The notes beneath the pieces were generated by a model, which did no database searches, was not told where the DNA came from, and saw only the letters and a program-made list of their open reading frames with translations. A stretch of 64,000 bases of DNA from Candidatus Babeliales bacterium. Lineage in GTDB: Bacteria; Babelota; Babeliae; Babelales; JANWKD01. The stretch lies in NCBI GenBank assembly GCA_963701665.1, contig OY969622.1, forward strand, positions 736,001-800,000. The letters run 5' to 3'. Position numbers and translations under genes: made by a program. Positions within the stretch are counted from its first letter, which is position 1, and each line of letters opens with the position of its first letter. Shown here in pieces: positions 2,301 through 29,649 of the stretch.

Positions 2301-3245
2301 TCAGTTATTTTTCTTCAAATCAAAATATCCTTGCCTCATTTCTTCATGATATACGATAAACAATCCACTTAAAAGAAAAACTGAAGAAACGATGAAAGAC
2401 ACCGAAATTGATTCGCCTAAGAAAAACCATCCAAAAAGTGCTGCAAATGCAGGCGTCATAAGCTCCCCAAAGGTAACAAGAGTCGCCGTAAAACGTTGCA
2501 ACAAGAACCCATACAAAAGATAACAGATGATGTTACCAAACAAAATCAAAAGAACAGAATAGCCAAGGAATGGTATCAGTTCTGTCACCGGGAACCACTC
2601 TGAAAGTAATGGTTGTGTAAGACATCCACCATTTTCAATAAAGTATGAAGTAATCAATGCTGCGATACCACCACATAACATACCAACGCCATTTATAAAG
2701 ATAATGGGAAGCGCGTGCTTTTTAATACCTTTTCTAATGACAACCCATCCATAAGAAAAAGAAACAATAGCCGCAAATATTGCAAGTTCAGGTAATGAGA
2801 CAGCAACGAGGTTACATCCATCATAAGAACCCGATGCAAAGATAACGGGAAGTGAACCGATTAAACTGAGCGCAAGCCCGCACGCTTTTTTAACCGTCAT
2901 TTTTTCATGGAATATATAATAGGAGAATAAAGCTGCAATAGCGGGAGAAAGGCTATAAAGAAATGCCGTTTTTGCCGACGACATGTATTGTAATGACCAG
3001 AACTCCATTATATAAGCAAAGTAAAAACAGAAAAATGATACTTGTATAAAGAGGAAGTAATCAGATCGAATAAGTTTTGGAAATTTTCTGTTGGTACACC
3101 AATAAGCAACTAAAAAAGCAACGCCTGAAACAATAAGACGAAAACTAATTAAAAAGATAGGGGGAGAATAGCCAAGGAGAATTTTACCAAGCGTATAAGT
3201 ACTAGCAGAGAAAGCGGAAAGTAACATTAAAAGAAACATGCGCAT
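2301..3245 (-). CDS. EamA/DMT family transporter (chlamydial SAM/SAH carrier-like)
   Basis: About 10 TM helices, FGWFFLGE motif, C-terminal YHEEMRQGY; paralogue of 19629-20537. Confidence 0.85.
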   Translation of the reverse strand: MRMFLLMLLSAFSASTYTLGKILLGYSPPIFLISFRLIVSGVAFLVAYWCTNRKFPKLIRSDYFLFIQVSFFCFYFAYIMEFWSLQYMSSAKTAFLYSLSPAIAALFSYYIFHEKMTVKKACGLALSLIGSLPVIFASGSYDGCNLVAVSLPELAIFAAIVSFSYGWVVIRKGIKKHALPIIFINGVGMLCGGIAALITSYFIENGGCLTQPLLSEWFPVTELIPFLGYSVLLILFGNIICYLLYGFLLQRFTATLVTFGELMTPAFAALFGWFFLGESISVSFIVSSVFLLSGLFIVYHEEMRQGYFDLKKNN

Positions 3246-19628: not shown

Positions 19629-20537
19629 TTAGGCCTTTTCTGCCGTTATCATATATCCTTGTTTTAATTCTTCATGGTAAAAAATATATAATCCAATACA
19701 GACAACAATGAGTGACATAAAAAAGCTTATACTCACGCGCTCGCCTAAAAATAACCATCCAAATAATGCCGCAAAAAATGGTGTCGTAAATCCCGCAAAT
19801 GCAAGGAATGTCGCGGTATAACGCTTGAGTAAATAGCCATAAAAATTATAAAAAACAATATTAGCAAGAAGAATAATAAGCGCTGTTAGCCGAACAAACG
19901 GCCAAAAATCAGTCACCGGAGAAACCGTCCACCCTTCAATGCAGTAGGAAGTAAGAAGTGCTAATATACCGCCACCAACCATACCAATACCATTCACCAT
20001 GATTGGCGAATATTCCCCATCTTTTACTAATTTACGCATAGTCACCCAACCATATACCGCTGATCCCACAGCAAAAAGCATAATAAATTCTGGTAACATA
20101 GTCGCTGAAGAAAAAGAAGTCATATCTATATTGGCAATAATCTCAGGCGCAAAACCACAAAAGCCAATACCAAGCCCCAACCATTTTTTTAGCGTCATTT
20201 TTTCAGAAAAACAGAAATATGAAAATAAAGCTGCTAAAAATGGAGAGAAATTGTAAAGAAAGGATGATTTAAAAGAAGTTAGATATTGTAATGACCATAA
20301 ATCTAAGATATACGCGAAATAGACGTGAAAAAGAATAATCTGGAAAAACAATAAACGATCTTTCTTATGTATAAAAAACGTACGTTTATCTTGAAAATAC
20401 GAGTAACCGAGCAAAAGCATGCCCGCAACAAGCATGCGTACGCCAACCAAAAAAAGCGGTTTCACATATGCCAACAAGGCTTTACAAATGGTGAAAGTAC
20501 TAGCACACACAGCATACAATGCAATAATAGAAAACAT
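19629..20537 (-). CDS. EamA/DMT family transporter, candidate SAM/SAH carrier
   Basis: About 10 TM helices; FLYNFSPFLAALFSY, FGWLFLGE, C-terminal YHEELKQGY; downstream of the SAM hydrolase. Confidence 0.85.
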   Translation of the reverse strand: MFSIIALYAVCASTFTICKALLAYVKPLFLVGVRMLVAGMLLLGYSYFQDKRTFFIHKKDRLLFFQIILFHVYFAYILDLWSLQYLTSFKSSFLYNFSPFLAALFSYFCFSEKMTLKKWLGLGIGFCGFAPEIIANIDMTSFSSATMLPEFIMLFAVGSAVYGWVTMRKLVKDGEYSPIMVNGIGMVGGGILALLTSYCIEGWTVSPVTDFWPFVRLTALIILLANIVFYNFYGYLLKRYTATFLAFAGFTTPFFAALFGWLFLGERVSISFFMSLIVVCIGLYIFYHEELKQGYMITAEKA

Positions 20538-20756
20538 AGAAGACCCTTTTTCTTAAAAGTCATTTGAACTTGAGGCAAGATAAAGTTATCGTGCCCCATA
20601 AATAATTTAATCAATCGCCCTTAGATTGCAAATGCATAGGCTCAAACATCAGCACTAATCCGCGCTGATCAGCCCTCCAACTTTTTTATCAATTTCTTCA
20701 AGATCATAAAACTGTAAAAATTTTTTAATATCCATAATATCCTTTAAAAAAGCCTA

Positions 20757-21527
20757 TTAAACAGTAACAACAATCTCTTGCCCAGGGAATGCTTGCAAAT
20801 AATCTCTCGCGCAACCTTGGTTAACCGCAATTTCAAGCGTTTCATTGCTCCCTTTATAGCACAGCAATTTTCCTGGCTGCACATTATCAAATGTAGTCAC
20901 AAAAAGCGCCTCAAAAGATTTTTCCTCTATCTTGAGGCATATCACTTTATTAAACCATGCAGCATCAGCTGGTATATTAGTTTTAATATTCCCAAAACTA
21001 TCGATATAGGTAATAATTTTTTGTGTTTCGAGAATATCACAATATTTAATATCTTTTTTATCAATCGGCAAAAGAGCATCACAATTGCCTTGAGCCAACC
21101 GAATTGCAATTGGTGCAAAAATATCTCTGCCATGGAATGTATTAGATTTTTCTGGGAAACAGAATTCGTTAATTTTAAAAACCGTTACACCCTCTTGCTT
21201 CAAAATATAATGAAACAAGCCATTATTGGGCCCAATAAAAGTATACGAGCCAAGTTTTACCACCAAACCACTCCGTTCAGTACCAACTCCTGGATCAACA
21301 ACCGCAATAATATAACTATTTTCTGGAAAATAGGCGTATATCTTTTCAAGCACAAATGCACCACTCACAACAGAAAACTTTTCTATAGAATGATCAATAT
21401 CGATAACTGAACTGTCAGGAATCGCACGCAATAAGGTTGCTTTTATTGTAGCAACGGCAAAGTCAAACCCAAAATCAGTCAATAGGCCAAAAGTAATATT
21501 CGTATTTTTTGAAGATAATAAATTCAT
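20757..21527 (-). CDS. SAM hydroxide adenosyltransferase / SAM hydrolase (DUF62, chlorinase-fluorinase family)
   Basis: LLTDFG, VVDPGVGTER, TFHGRDIFAP, YIDSFGN, LEIAVNQG; RBS GAGAGG before ATG 21527. Confidence 0.93.
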   Translation of the reverse strand: MNLLSSKNTNITFGLLTDFGFDFAVATIKATLLRAIPDSSVIDIDHSIEKFSVVSGAFVLEKIYAYFPENSYIIAVVDPGVGTERSGLVVKLGSYTFIGPNNGLFHYILKQEGVTVFKINEFCFPEKSNTFHGRDIFAPIAIRLAQGNCDALLPIDKKDIKYCDILETQKIITYIDSFGNIKTNIPADAAWFNKVICLKIEEKSFEALFVTTFDNVQPGKLLCYKGSNETLEIAVNQGCARDYLQAFPGQEIVVTV

Positions 21528-21614
21528 AATCAAACCTCTCTCATTAAAATAAATGAAATAAAAGCATAACAAAAGCACATACCCTAAAAAGGGTTTAGCT
21601 TATAAAAAAAATAA

Positions 21615-21675
21615 GGGTAAAAAGAAAGATATATGGCCTTAGGCCATCATATAAAGAAGAGAGTATGACATAGCC
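21615..21675 (-). promoter_or_regulatory. Candidate attenuator (terminator hairpin with U-tract and competing upstream pairing)
   Basis: Minus strand ATATGATGGCC-TAA-GGCCATATAT-CTTTCTTTTT; alternative pairing GGCTATGTCATA with TATGATGGCC. Confidence 0.55.
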
Positions 21676-21737
21676 ATAAATGCCAAAAACAAAATTTTGC
21701 TTGTCTGAAGAGAACAGAAAATAATGTTAGGATTCAT
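21639..21737 (-). CDS. Putative Met-rich leader peptide (32 aa) MNPNIIFCSLQTSKILFLAFMAMSYSLLYMMA
   Basis: GAGG RBS just upstream; 4 Met codons in the last 12 codons; stop codon forms the loop of the terminator hairpin. Confidence 0.55.
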   Translation of the reverse strand: MNPNIIFCSLQTSKILFLAFMAMSYSLLYMMA

Positions 21738-21777
21738 AGATACCTCACATGAATTGAATTGTTACTATTATATTTTA

Positions 21778-21806
21778 AGTTTAAGAATCAAATTCTAATT
21801 TGTCAA
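21778..21806 (-). promoter_or_regulatory. sigma70 promoter upstream of the leader/DUF62 gene
   Basis: TTGACA-N17-TAAACT on the minus strand. Confidence 0.65.
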
Positions 21807-25567: not shown

Positions 25568-26389
25568 ATGAAATTTTTAAAGAATAATAAGGTATTTTTG
25601 ATAGCGGCAATAGCCTTAGCAGGCTTGATCATTATAGGTATAGGACTTATAGAGAAAAACACCTACCAAAGTAGTGAATCAATTCAGCCTAACTTGCTTT
25701 CGCAGCTTTCACTTGATTCGGCTCAAGAAATATCTAAAGAAACGTATCAAACTTTTCTAAAAGATGAAGAAACACGTATTTGGGGTCTTTTAAAAGGAAT
25801 CTTAAATATGTCTCAAGATGAATGTAATGCAAAAAAAATACAGTGGCAAAGCTACTACGCCAATGATGCAAAAGAGTTACAAGATTTGAACAAGAATTTA
25901 CCTCCTCTTTCATCAGATACTTTAAAGGTTGTCAAAGCTGTTTTAGAAGATTTTAATATATCTGAAGATGCCGTTGTCATTTTACCATTTGAAGATTATT
26001 GTCCGGCAGCTGCTGATGATTGCAGCCTATTTATTAATGAAACACTATTTAAACAATTATCACCCAATGCTCAAAAATTCTGTATTGGTCACGAATTACA
26101 GCATTTTTTAAACAAAGATGATTCAACAAATTATGTGTTATTACAGCATTGCGATCAAGATAAATCAGAATTACCTGCTGAACATTCTATTCAACAAATT
26201 TCAAGACTACAAGAGCTCAGAGCTGATCTTAGCGCAGCAGCAAAAAATGATGAATATGCTCAAGGATTCAAAGAATTTATCAACATAGCATTAGAAATTG
26301 TTGGTGACGGTCCAGGAACAACACATCCAAAAAATACATTAAGATTAAGCTATGCAGAGAAATTAATTGCTCAAACAATAGTAACTTAA
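25568..26389 (+). CDS. M48-like zinc metallopeptidase, N-terminally anchored (paralogue 1)
   Basis: HELQH, ELRAD, THP..R motifs. Confidence 0.75.
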   Translation: MKFLKNNKVFLIAAIALAGLIIIGIGLIEKNTYQSSESIQPNLLSQLSLDSAQEISKETYQTFLKDEETRIWGLLKGILNMSQDECNAKKIQWQSYYANDAKELQDLNKNLPPLSSDTLKVVKAVLEDFNISEDAVVILPFEDYCPAAADDCSLFINETLFKQLSPNAQKFCIGHELQHFLNKDDSTNYVLLQHCDQDKSELPAEHSIQQISRLQELRADLSAAAKNDEYAQGFKEFINIALEIVGDGPGTTHPKNTLRLSYAEKLIAQTIVT

Positions 26390-26405
26390 TACTGAAACTA
26401 AAAAA

Positions 26406-27254
26406 ATGGAGAAGATCATGGAATTTGTTAATAAAAAGAATATTTTAATCGCATCAGCACTATTAGGTATTATTCCAGCACTTTATTATATCAATCATAG
26501 ACAAACAGCTATCACACCAAATTTAATACATCAACTGGGTATTGATGAAAATAGCCTTAAGAATGATTATTATGTAGGCATTTCACCTAACTCGGAAAAA
26601 AGCACAAAAGAAGAATATCTTGCATGGCTTGCTTCGGAAGAAAAAAAAGTATGGCATGATGTTACAGCATTAACAGGAATTACCTACGATGAATGCAAAA
26701 AATTAGTTCAAGAATACCTGCCAACACATGCTAAAGAAACTGAAGGGCTTAAAAAGCAATTAAGTACTGGCAAGGAAGTTGCGCCCCATGTTAGAGAAGT
26801 TATTGAAACCGTTATTCATGATTTAGGTTGCCAACCACTTGAAATTATTTCATGCACCTATCCCGTTGCTGCGGCAACTCACGGCCCGATCGTTTTGGTA
26901 AACGAAGAAATTTTCAATACTATGCCAACGCTCGCACAAAAATTCGTGGTGGCTCATGAAATTAGTCATATTTTCTTACAAGATGACGAGATACGCTCCG
27001 TGCTTAGAAGTAAAGGTTTTGCGCCTAACGAAGAATCACTCGATTATGCTATAAACAAGCTTTACCGTTTCCAAGAGTTACGAGCTGATATGCTTGCAGC
27101 GCTCACAAGTCTTGAATATGCAAAAGGTTATACTGAATACGTTCATAATGCTTTAGGCAGAAGAGACAATGAAGAAATTACTGAATTATTTTATCCGACC
27201 TACGTACTGAGACAAACAACTAGTGAAAAAATTCAACAAATAGTTTTTGCATAA
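26406..27254 (+). CDS. M48-like zinc metallopeptidase (paralogue 2)
   Basis: HEISH, ELRAD; distal HP motif replaced by YP. Confidence 0.7.
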   Translation: MEKIMEFVNKKNILIASALLGIIPALYYINHRQTAITPNLIHQLGIDENSLKNDYYVGISPNSEKSTKEEYLAWLASEEKKVWHDVTALTGITYDECKKLVQEYLPTHAKETEGLKKQLSTGKEVAPHVREVIETVIHDLGCQPLEIISCTYPVAAATHGPIVLVNEEIFNTMPTLAQKFVVAHEISHIFLQDDEIRSVLRSKGFAPNEESLDYAINKLYRFQELRADMLAALTSLEYAKGYTEYVHNALGRRDNEEITELFYPTYVLRQTTSEKIQQIVFA

Positions 27255-27280
27255 TTTTGAATTTAAATAAGGAATAGAAC

Positions 27281-28759
27281 ATGAAAAGATTAATATTAAT
27301 AGTATTAACAATGATATCGCTACAAGCGTTCGCCATGGAACAAAAGCCTACGGCAAACCAAAACACTCTCAGAGAAAAATTAGGTGCACTTTTCAATGCT
27401 GTTATCCAACGCGATGCATTGAAAGTACAAAATTTATTATCTGATCATGAAATCAGTTCCCATAAAACAATTTTGGATACCCGCGCGTTAATTAAAGGGA
27501 TGCCAACAGCAGCATCACTCATCGATTTTGCGGTTGAGCTCCCAGATCCTACTATTTTAAGACACTTAATTAAAGCTGGTGCGTCAATAGAAACAAGAAA
27601 TAGTGAAGGTCAGACTCCGCTGTTGAAAGCTGTTTATAATAGAAATGTTCCTGCTGTTAGAGTCCTCTTAAAAAATAAAGCAGATGTAAACGTCAAAAGT
27701 CTTAGGAGCAAATCTTCTCCATTAAAGTATGCTGTTAATAACCACGACTACTCTGTGATTGAACTCTTGATTGGCCACGGTGCTCGTCTTGATGAATTTC
27801 AACGAGGATCCCGTACTGAAATAGAGAATGCGCTTTTGCATAAATCACAGAATGATTCAAATTTCTATCCTGAAAAATTTTTGCTCAAAGCAGCAAAAAC
27901 TAACCCCAATATTATTATGAGAGACAACAGTAGAACTCGTATGCCGGCTTTGCACTATCTTCTCAGAAAATTTTATGAAGAATATTACAACCCTCAATTT
28001 GTGCAAGGGCTCAATGCTGCAACAAAAAAAGGTGAAGACATCTTAATGAAGCCAGAAGAATCAAAATTAATCCAATCAATTTTACAGCAAATTGAAGCCG
28101 GATTTAATATTAATAAGATAGACAGCGATGATCGTACAGCTTTAGCAATTGCTATCGAAAATACAGATCCAACTTTCGTAAAATGGATTTTGTCTCATCA
28201 CAAGGCTAATGCCATGACTTACGATAGTAGCAAACGCATTACCACTATTACCGGACTTTGCACCATAGATCCTACATCTCGACGTCCAATGCAATATGTC
28301 TTAAATGAATTAGAAAAGGTAATCAAAGATAAGCAAATATACTTAAAATTACAATTTTCTGATCGAGTGGATGAATTGTCTCTTAAAAAGGATCGGCTAC
28401 TTTCAATAGCTGAGCATCTTGTCAGCTATAACCCTTATTTATGCACTCAAGAAATAATGTTTAGCAATTACCTTATTTCACCTTTTGAATTTGCAGAGCA
28501 ACAAGGATTGCACGAGCTTACGGAAATACTTCAAAAATATAATCAATTAAGTTTAGTTGAACAAACTGCAAAGCAGCTTATAAATAACATACTTGCAACG
28601 GGTTTTGATGATCCAAAAAATAATTTAGGTGCATTGCCAAAAGAAGTCATTAAAAACTTGGTGGATGAAATCGATAAATTAATTACTGTACGTCAAGATA
28701 AAGAAGCATTACATAATTTGAAAGACGGCATTATTAAAACATATTTAATTCAGTCTTAA
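27281..28759 (+). CDS. Secreted ankyrin-repeat protein
   Basis: GQTPLLKAV..VRVLLKNKADVN, SPLKYAV..LLIGHGA, RTALAIA; signal peptide ..AFAME. Confidence 0.88.
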   Translation: MKRLILIVLTMISLQAFAMEQKPTANQNTLREKLGALFNAVIQRDALKVQNLLSDHEISSHKTILDTRALIKGMPTAASLIDFAVELPDPTILRHLIKAGASIETRNSEGQTPLLKAVYNRNVPAVRVLLKNKADVNVKSLRSKSSPLKYAVNNHDYSVIELLIGHGARLDEFQRGSRTEIENALLHKSQNDSNFYPEKFLLKAAKTNPNIIMRDNSRTRMPALHYLLRKFYEEYYNPQFVQGLNAATKKGEDILMKPEESKLIQSILQQIEAGFNINKIDSDDRTALAIAIENTDPTFVKWILSHHKANAMTYDSSKRITTITGLCTIDPTSRRPMQYVLNELEKVIKDKQIYLKLQFSDRVDELSLKKDRLLSIAEHLVSYNPYLCTQEIMFSNYLISPFEFAEQQGLHELTEILQKYNQLSLVEQTAKQLINNILATGFDDPKNNLGALPKEVIKNLVDEIDKLITVRQDKEALHNLKDGIIKTYLIQS

Positions 28760-28794
28760 CTGTTTTATAACTAACTATAAATGGAGAGAGACGA

Positions 28795-29649
28795 ATGAAT
28801 TTAAGAATTTTAGATATTAAGCTAAACAAAAGAATTATTGCATCAATCGCTGTACTTATAATTGCAATATCATCCTTAACTTTGCATCGCATTCACCAAA
28901 CACAAAAAAATACGAGCATTGAACCAAATCTAAACGCGCGCATTGATCTTACAGCTTTTGAGCAAACGAGTGCGCTACAAGATTTTCAAACATTATTAGA
29001 TAATGAAGAAACACTCGTTTGGCACGAGATTGAACACGCAAGTGGGATGTCAAAAAAACAAATTATAGCTATAAAAAGTGAAAAGAGTTGGCAAAAATAT
29101 TATGCAGAAGATATCAAGAATCTAAAAGAGAAAAAACATAGTGATCACAAGATTAGCCAAAAAAATACGGAACTCATCAAACGAATGATCCACTTATGTG
29201 GTCTCGATTCAAACAACATAGAAATTGTAAGCTCTAATGGTTTTTCTCCAGCGGCCGCAACTGATATCGTTCTATTCGTAAATCCAGAAAAATTTGATGC
29301 ACTTTCTCCTAATATACAAAAGTTCGTTCTAGTACATGAGATGAGCCATATTATTAATCAAGATCACTCAACACGTTGTATACTCGAAGATATGCAAGAA
29401 AATCAGAAAGATAACGAGCGCTTAGAACATGCTATAAATCATATTAAATACTTTTCTGAAACAAGAGCTGACGTCTTTGCTATTCTTCAAGGACAAGAAT
29501 TTGCACAAGGCCAAATCGATTTTATGGAACAATGTTTAAAACTACACGGAAATAAGCCAGGCCGTAGCCACCCATCAAATGGTGAACGTCTTGCAATGGG
29601 GCAAAAACTATTAGCATTGATAGAACATAAAAACAATTCACAAGCATAA
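28795..29649 (+). CDS. M48-like zinc metallopeptidase (paralogue 3)
   Basis: HEMSH, ETRAD, SHPS..ERL. Confidence 0.75.
   Translation: MNLRILDIKLNKRIIASIAVLIIAISSLTLHRIHQTQKNTSIEPNLNARIDLTAFEQTSALQDFQTLLDNEETLVWHEIEHASGMSKKQIIAIKSEKSWQKYYAEDIKNLKEKKHSDHKISQKNTELIKRMIHLCGLDSNNIEIVSSNGFSPAAATDIVLFVNPEKFDALSPNIQKFVLVHEMSHIINQDHSTRCILEDMQENQKDNERLEHAINHIKYFSETRADVFAILQGQEFAQGQIDFMEQCLKLHGNKPGRSHPSNGERLAMGQKLLALIEHKNNSQA

Follow-up and report, generated by a model that had tools for sequence, protein, structure and literature searches.

The window, a stretch of 64,000 nucleotides, holds a DUF62 gene and with it the question of why a cell retains an enzyme that breaks down SAM, a costly compound. 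The question is approached here through the short open reading frame (ORF) that precedes this gene. The source genome, a single 1.34-Mb contig that is 93.6% complete, belongs to the phylum Dependentiae, which comprises bacteria living inside protists.

Anatomy of the leader

A first-pass annotation of the window had described a promoter TTGACA-N17-TAAACT, a GAGG, a 32-codon ORF (21737-21639) and a hairpin upstream of a SAM hydrolase gene. All four elements lie on the minus strand at the positions it gave (Table 1), and the downstream gene is indeed a DUF62 gene (SAM_HAT_N, E 4e-45; SAM_HAT_C, E 8e-20). The leader peptide reads MNPNIIFCSLQTSKILFLAFMAMSYSLLYMMA*, with Met at codons 1, 21, 23, 30 and 31, and its ORF is pyrimidine-rich with an excess of C over G. 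In the window the hairpin has a 10-bp stem interrupted by a single bulged G (-8.8 kcal/mol) and is directly followed by CTTTCTTTTT at 21628-21619; after the U/C tract the DUF62 gene starts a further 110 nt on, at 21527.

Table 1. Features of the leader and of the downstream genes in the window.
Feature	Position	Strand	Remark
Sigma70-type promoter-like site TTGACA-N17-TAAACT	21778..21806	-	TTGACA 21806-21801, TAAACT 21783-21778
Shine-Dalgarno-like GAGG of the leader	21743..21746	-	Read from the sequence
Leader ORF	21639..21737 (incl. stop)	-	32 codons, ends Met-Met-Ala-stop
Hairpin with the last Met-Met-Ala codons in the 5' arm and the stop codon in the loop	21629..21652	-	Conserved
Upstream strand able to pair with the 5' arm of the hairpin	21664..21675	-	Significant only in the genus of the window
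U/C-rich, G-poor tract, predicted termination zone, rut-like	21599..21628	-	Composition
Second weak terminator-like hairpin	21581..21594	-	Minority of homologues
DUF62 / SAM hydrolase-family gene, 256 aa	20757..21527	-	SAM_HAT_N and SAM_HAT_C
Cupin remnant (Cupin_2; 113-aa gene with internal deletion, intact in relatives)	20594..20735	-
Transporter of the EamA (drug/metabolite) family, 302 aa; putative importer of SAM	19629..20537	-	EamA family match

The promoter-like site scores 10/12 and is joint best among 8 matches, where shuffles give 4.2, and is not significant on its own; a loose TTG..-N15-19-..T pattern is located 5' of 14 of the 27 leaders analyzed below, a raw count without control. 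Most homologous leader starts are preceded by purine-rich, Shine-Dalgarno-like words. Two terminator-like sites are observed at the locus compared to 0.2 in shuffles, and the strand of 21570-21770 folds with z = -3.0. An Rfam search of the window returned two tRNAs at gathering score and otherwise nothing, the leader locus included.

Conservation at DUF62 loci

DUF62 is present in 16 of 261 Dependentiae genomes, at 16 loci. At 14 of these an upstream ORF ends in Met-Ala/Gly-stop, with the stop codon situated in the loop of a short hairpin. In a variant locus, L044, the hairpin is preserved and followed at once by the stop codon, and upstream of the DUF62 gene of G214, one of the 16, no leader was found. 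Among 23 metagenome DUF62 loci the leader is found in 13, two carry variants (a broken frame in L018, a moved stop in L026), six have none and two are too short; four of the six leaderless loci lie in a different gene context. At L042 (G042) two Met leaders are arranged in tandem, and at L043 one precedes a cupin gene and another DUF62.

The exact core pattern gave seven matches in six of the 261 genomes, all of them at DUF62, and no control match. A layout rule that is blind to the amino acid placed leaders at 13 of the 16 DUF62 loci with Met as top residue (27 counts compared to 11 for the next); applied to the metG loci of the phylum, it gave 0 of 30, and no Met leader was found before metG. 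The RNA model R1, run on 150 genomes, matched at DUF62 loci only, in 6 of the 150, plus one Ile-type leader in G191, and has one match in the source genome. Conservation of the upstream ORF and its Met codons in orthologous leaders had been set beforehand as the first refuting test of the proposal; both were found to be conserved, together with one covarying pair in the hairpin. At the level of sequence comparison the leader is confirmed as real and conserved, and a chance origin can be excluded on the grounds of this conservation.

Several further matches were dropped. In L056/L033, Met-His-Met-Ala-stop is part of an ankyrin-like gene and has no hairpin, second matches in L021, L022 and L046 were ascribed to chance, and a second Met-Met-Ala-stop, at G000:350315, belongs to a repeat with many copies and does not represent a leader. 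Copies of a dispersed repeat, about 140 nt long (85-93% identity), occur at G000:C1:350237-350376 and in about 12 other places of the source genome.

Selection at the codon level

The codon analysis covers 27 leaders from 26 loci, close relatives included, chosen by their Met-Ala/Gly-stop end, which renders positions -1 and -2 circular; the set leaves out L018, L026, L034, L044 and the second L043 leader. At positions -3 to -12, Met accounts for 65 of 270 codons (24%) compared to 7 of 551 (1.3%) further upstream, and at codons -12 to -4 ATG occurs 45 times in frame but 2 and 0 times in the other frames. Among the upstream Met codons, those at -11, -10, -8 and -5 are conserved. Outside the last three residues the mean identity of the leader peptides is about 11%, and their length is mostly 30-37 codons. 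The low peptide identity in combination with the in-frame enrichment of Met indicates that codons are kept, not a peptide.

This result bears on nascent-peptide arrest, in which the peptide inside the exit tunnel would respond to free Met or SAM by blocking its own termination, comparable to the TnaC arrest peptide, whose own termination is blocked by tryptophan. An invariant Met at -2, a small residue at -1, the length distribution and a downstream gene encoding a catabolic enzyme are all compatible with such a sensor. However, tnaC needs a conserved arrest peptide, which the Dependentiae leaders with their low identity do not have; moreover, their last residues are accounted for by the RNA stem, and the sister leaders described below swap residues along with the target gene, all of which makes arrest by the peptide rather improbable. 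SAM genes are often controlled by riboswitches, and a riboswitch, a T-box or a chance ORF has also been considered. Besides the two tRNAs the window holds no Rfam match, the conserved structure is just a helix of 5-6 bp and the ATG enrichment is frame-specific, which leaves these readings hardly credible.

The stop hairpin and competing helices

The hairpin was analyzed in a model-fitted alignment of 27 matches, in which model fit and kinship inflate the covariation signal. Two G-C pairs are invariant, and one stem pair, the only one that covaries, changes from C-G to G-C in 4 of the 27 aligned matches, where Ala becomes Gly, a pattern reached by 0 of 500 shuffles. Stem pairing amounts to 82%, compared to at most 49% in slid controls. 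With ORF, Met cluster and hairpin conserved and one pair covarying, one part of the proposal of the first-pass annotation, a translated Met-codon leader probably controlling read-through into DUF62, is supported.

It had further been proposed that two mutually exclusive helices act as the switch: an upstream strand assigned to Met21-Met23 and the 3' arm of the hairpin would compete for the 5' arm, and the position of the ribosome would decide. The strand does exist at 21675-21664, where it begins with the final base of Met21 and reaches Tyr25. In the window its duplex with the 5' arm (-9.2 kcal/mol) exceeds codon shuffles with p 0.003, and the alternative fold wins once the 5' end is shortened. 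A trace of this helix persists in the enrichment of Ala(GCY)-Met, with GCC or GCT directly before 10 of 48 upstream Met codons compared to 10 of 715 codons elsewhere; GCA precedes an upstream Met codon once. As a general switch, however, the two helices are not supported. Only two of the 27 leaders, both members of the window's genus, have an upstream helix better than codon shuffles, and the stop hairpin prevails whether or not the upstream strand is available, its mean probability being 0.92 free and 0.93 with the upstream Met region masked. A decision by competing helices therefore appears quite improbable. A classical pair of 2:3 and 3:4 helices was likewise rejected, since it is not conserved in the 27 leaders; in the same set, the search for a conserved antiterminator found the 3' arm pairing downstream better than shuffles in one leader only. 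The second terminator-like hairpin is present in 5 of 27 leaders, with 0.6 expected.

Alternatively, the position of the ribosome could act on translation, either by freeing or hiding the DUF62 ribosome-binding site or by boosting reinitiation. The pyrimidine-rich leader could pair with a purine-rich site, and mycobacterial polycysteine leaders have been described as attenuators. However, the predicted accessibility of the downstream site (24 of 27 leaders, called start) is 0.30 free and 0.32 and 0.33 with a ribosome, and spacers extend from 82 to over 300 nt. Ribosome-dependent sequestration of the DUF62 site was rejected on the basis of this unchanged accessibility, and translational control altogether is considered very unlikely.

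Sister leaders for other amino acids

A scan of the source genome for the same layout gave seven matches, and a second scan found nine hairpin-bearing ORFs among 129 short ORFs with a Shine-Dalgarno sequence before genes. Five layout leaders precede amino-acid genes, namely DUF62, thrS, ileS, an orphan gene followed by leuS, and brnQ. The thrS leader (G000:C1:805331-805429 (+), corresponding to L068:832-930) ends in ...AQTTA* with the stop in the hairpin loop, and the ileS leader (G000:C1, stop at 708889 (+), L074) ends in ...SFIIVR* within the hairpin. A Leu-rich leader is located before the leuS operon (G000:C1, stop at 322102 (-), L070/L077), and the leader of brnQ, which encodes a branched-chain transporter, displays the same layout with 49 codons, Val, Ile and Thr among them (G000:C1, stop at 523650 (-), L069). 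The four sister leaders are also pyrimidine-rich. The orphan between the Leu-rich leader and leuS encodes 294 aa with a weak match to M48 peptidases (E 0.0009, below cut-off), and in G001 (L112) an Ile-rich leader is followed by an inserted 306-aa gene resembling the orphan and then by ileS; both inserted genes possibly encode starvation-induced peptidases. A Pro-ending short frame with its stop in a hairpin loop and no clear Shine-Dalgarno sequence is found before an APC amino-acid permease (G000:C1, stop 1065957 (+), L071).

Across the phylum, such leaders turn up sporadically. A TTA* leader is found again in a second genus, in G003 (L083), and a Thr-rich leader is found in G014. The Ile-Val-Arg pattern has seven matches in 6 of 261 genomes, which are leader-like only in G000 and in G191, where an IIVR-like end (L066) precedes an unrelated 114-aa gene. 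The blind rule matched at 2 of 30 thrS and 1 of 29 ileS loci, its matches outside the source genome look like chance, and it missed the ileS leader of the source genome itself.

In a sample of other phyla, DUF62 was present in 5 of 251 genomes, which provided four new loci, one of them with only 112 bases upstream. At one of the four a Met leader (L183:1339-1448) precedes DUF62-metG. It comprises 13 codons and has the organization of a classical four-segment Met attenuator with an antiterminator and a strong terminator, in which predicted folding couples stalling at Met to the antiterminator, i.e. ON under Met shortage.

Probable direction of the proposed switch

Synthetase genes are expected to rise under amino-acid shortage. 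Since synthetases are needed under such conditions, the layout shared with DUF62 argues that stalling on codons of the 5' arm means read-through. On the direction, which the first-pass annotation held could not be settled from sequence, comparison says a good deal: both the synthetase sister leaders and the L183 attenuator point to ON under shortage. That annotation had missed the sister leaders, the EamA and cupin genes and the rut-like composition.

The leader is probably a methionine-sensing transcription attenuator, which would induce the DUF62-(cupin)-EamA unit once charged methionyl-tRNA becomes scarce. When Met suffices, the ribosome would reach the stop codon and leave, the hairpin would refold, the C/U-rich leader would be bare and RNA polymerase would terminate within the U/C tract, probably with the help of Rho. 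Under Met shortage, a stall at the final AUG codons would place the ribosome over both arms of the hairpin, while queued ribosomes would cover the C/U-rich leader, giving rise to read-through into DUF62. An antiterminator helix would not be needed. Met shortage may also lower initiation at the leader.

The opposite polarity has to be weighed against this attenuator. In a coupling-type mechanism, a fast ribosome on the 5' arm would block an intrinsic terminator, and a stall at Met21 or Met23 would let the terminator form; DUF62 would then be on when Met is plentiful, serving disposal or (R)-SAM damage control. The stop-in-loop geometry and the conserved upstream Met positions are in line with this polarity, the hairpin stays intact when the leader is folded with a ribosome on Met21 or Met23, and DUF62 enzymes have been described as (R)-SAM salvage enzymes. 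However, in the Met, Thr and Ile leaders the cognate codons lie within the arm itself, with the 3' arm after them, and before thrS and ileS a layout that is OFF under shortage would be senseless. Together with the classical DUF62-metG example, which predicts ON under shortage, this renders the opposite polarity unlikely.

Predicted termination

Pyrimidines make up 67% of the leader and 73% of the tail, with a C over G skew of 0.29 and 0.48, respectively; the corresponding values for 288 intergenic controls are 50% and about 0. In the 27 leaders the C/G ratio reaches 5.2 at +20 to +40, and in a rut-like test, which considers composition only, the RNA near the leader stop is C-rich, G-poor and weakly structured. 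A rho gene is present in the source genome.

The hairpin has a median of -8.5 kcal/mol compared to -14.1 for gene-end terminators, the two values being measured differently. Only 2 of 107 terminator-like hairpins at gene ends overlap a stop codon, and the overlap of hairpin and stop is thus unusual in the source genome. The U-tract is uneven: of the 8 bases after the hairpin a median of 5 are U, 7 of 27 leaders have 4 or fewer, and in several the tract is poor or distant; a weak hairpin with a U-tract within reach of the ribosome fits the window. TTNTTT words occur in 20 of 27 leader ORFs compared to 34% of controls. Compared by eye, NusG of the source genome has no W-Y-x-x-R-N-T stretch, the residues of Bacillus pausing.

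Estimated from known footprints, the ribosome would reach the stop in the loop only after the polymerase passes the first U-tract, and termination slightly further on, helped by Rho, is therefore favored. By the same kind of estimate, the 5' arm would also lie under a ribosome following close behind while the polymerase is at the first U-tract, so that purely intrinsic termination would invert the logic. An intrinsic route is possible, as illustrated by the weak msrDL terminator; on balance, termination with Rho is somewhat more likely than purely intrinsic termination.

Comparison with known leaders

The short ORF led by a Shine-Dalgarno sequence and enriched in cognate codons, with a hairpin over the regulatory codons, resembles classical attenuators (trpL, hisL, thrL, pheM/pheST and leuS and trpS of Streptomyces), which likewise use a short translated leader with cognate codons. 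In the 1:2 pause hairpin of trpL the regulatory codons are situated in the 5' arm and the stop in or near the loop, which resembles the hairpin of the window and is seen likewise in L183. Use before synthetase genes is also described for classical attenuators (PMC1262725). In contrast to these, the Dependentiae leader reads Met, is long and pyrimidine-rich, lacks a conserved 2:3 antiterminator and a separate 3:4 terminator, and targets a salvage enzyme and a transporter. The leader L183 of CPR bacteria shares the Met codons, the DUF62 target and the stop in the loop of the first hairpin, but combines 13 codons with a full antiterminator and a strong terminator, whereas the Dependentiae leaders have 30-37 codons and one hairpin.

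The leader would act like a leader-peptide attenuator without the classical antiterminator, and comes closest to msrDL-type occlusion and to actinobacterial cys and ilvB leaders. In msrDL, a weak intrinsic terminator (-7.9 kcal/mol) is occluded by the stalled ribosome itself, stalling means ON, and the account given mentions no antiterminator (PMC10314930). However, msrDL senses macrolides via a 6-residue peptide and has a NusG-type pause, whereas the signal here would be uncharged tRNA. For actinobacterial cys leaders Rho and polypyrimidine sites have been proposed, and ilvB leaders overlap candidate terminators (PMC1262725); both have cognate codons beside the stop. In contrast, the Dependentiae leader reads Met instead of Cys or branched-chain residues and has a conserved, covarying stop-loop hairpin.

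Bacterial methionine genes are generally described as being read by riboswitches, T-boxes and repressors, and according to PMC1262725 the methionine operons of Actinobacteria are preceded by no conserved structure. Attenuators for other amino acids are covered in PMC2965389, PMC13236596 and PMC11857589. Within the literature searched, whose scope ended at subscription journals, supplements and Russian-language surveys, no Met-codon attenuator was found, and none in Dependentiae; attenuator lists in supplements, e.g. of PMC2965389, could hold Met cases.

A broader reading is put forward tentatively. Dependentiae may possess an attenuator of their own, consisting of one cognate-codon hairpin with the stop in its loop and a Rho-loading leader, with codons swapped for Met, Thr, Ile or Leu; its Met version would reveal DUF62 and EamA as a unit scavenging methionine from host SAM, under an RNA design unlike that of CPR bacteria. 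If true, the Met version would be a ribosome-read methionine sensor of a kind absent from the literature searched, and the one-hairpin design, with its specificity changed by a swap of two codons, a compact test case for competition between ribosome and Rho.

The downstream unit

The DUF62 protein of the window matches PH0463 over its full length, with the motifs DPGVGTER and FHGRD aligned. Its D78, its R85 and the FHGRD histidine are aligned with residues of PH0463 and are taken to form the Asp-Arg-His catalytic triad of DUF62. Against the NCBIfam models of (R)-SAM hydrolases the protein stays below the cut-offs (134 vs 350 and 130 vs 470). DUF62 enzymes are described as yielding Met and adenosine from SAM, and characterized members prefer (R)-SAM (bioRxiv 2025.08.29.672840). 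Since (R)-SAM represents a minor share of SAM, the yield of DUF62 as a Met source would be limited. Hydrolysis of (R,S)-SAM as the physiological role of StDUF62 is doubted in PMC12120602.

EamA follows DUF62 at 10 of the 16 loci of the phylum, and a SAM transporter of Chlamydia belongs to the same superfamily as EamA (PMC3104491). Families for metK, MetE-type enzymes, homocysteine methyltransferases and MetQ were not found in the source genome (one contig, 93.6% complete). None of the 16 DUF62 genomes was found to contain metK, which is not significant, as an overlap of about 1 is expected. We infer that under shortage the DUF62-EamA unit supplies the cell with Met drawn from host SAM: once induced, it would import host SAM and split it into adenosine and methionine, SAM import and cleavage being putative functions assigned from sequence. 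A Met-responsive leader suggests that the role of DUF62 is Met supply rather than damage control, and a Met-starvation switch in SAM-auxotrophic parasites would offer methionine supply as a testable answer to the question of why the enzyme is kept.

In relatives, the intact cupin gene is placed before or after DUF62, sometimes with a Met leader of its own (L043, L057, L020). In L004/L042 (G042), a Vut_1 transporter replaces EamA after DUF62, and several DUF62 homologues (L004, L043, L057) display a hydrophobic N-terminal extension. The genome encodes three EamA genes, and a second one lies in the window at about 2349-3236 (-). By eye, several similar genes of 270-285 aa with HEXXH-like motifs are arranged around an ankyrin-like gene at 25568-29649 (+) of the window.
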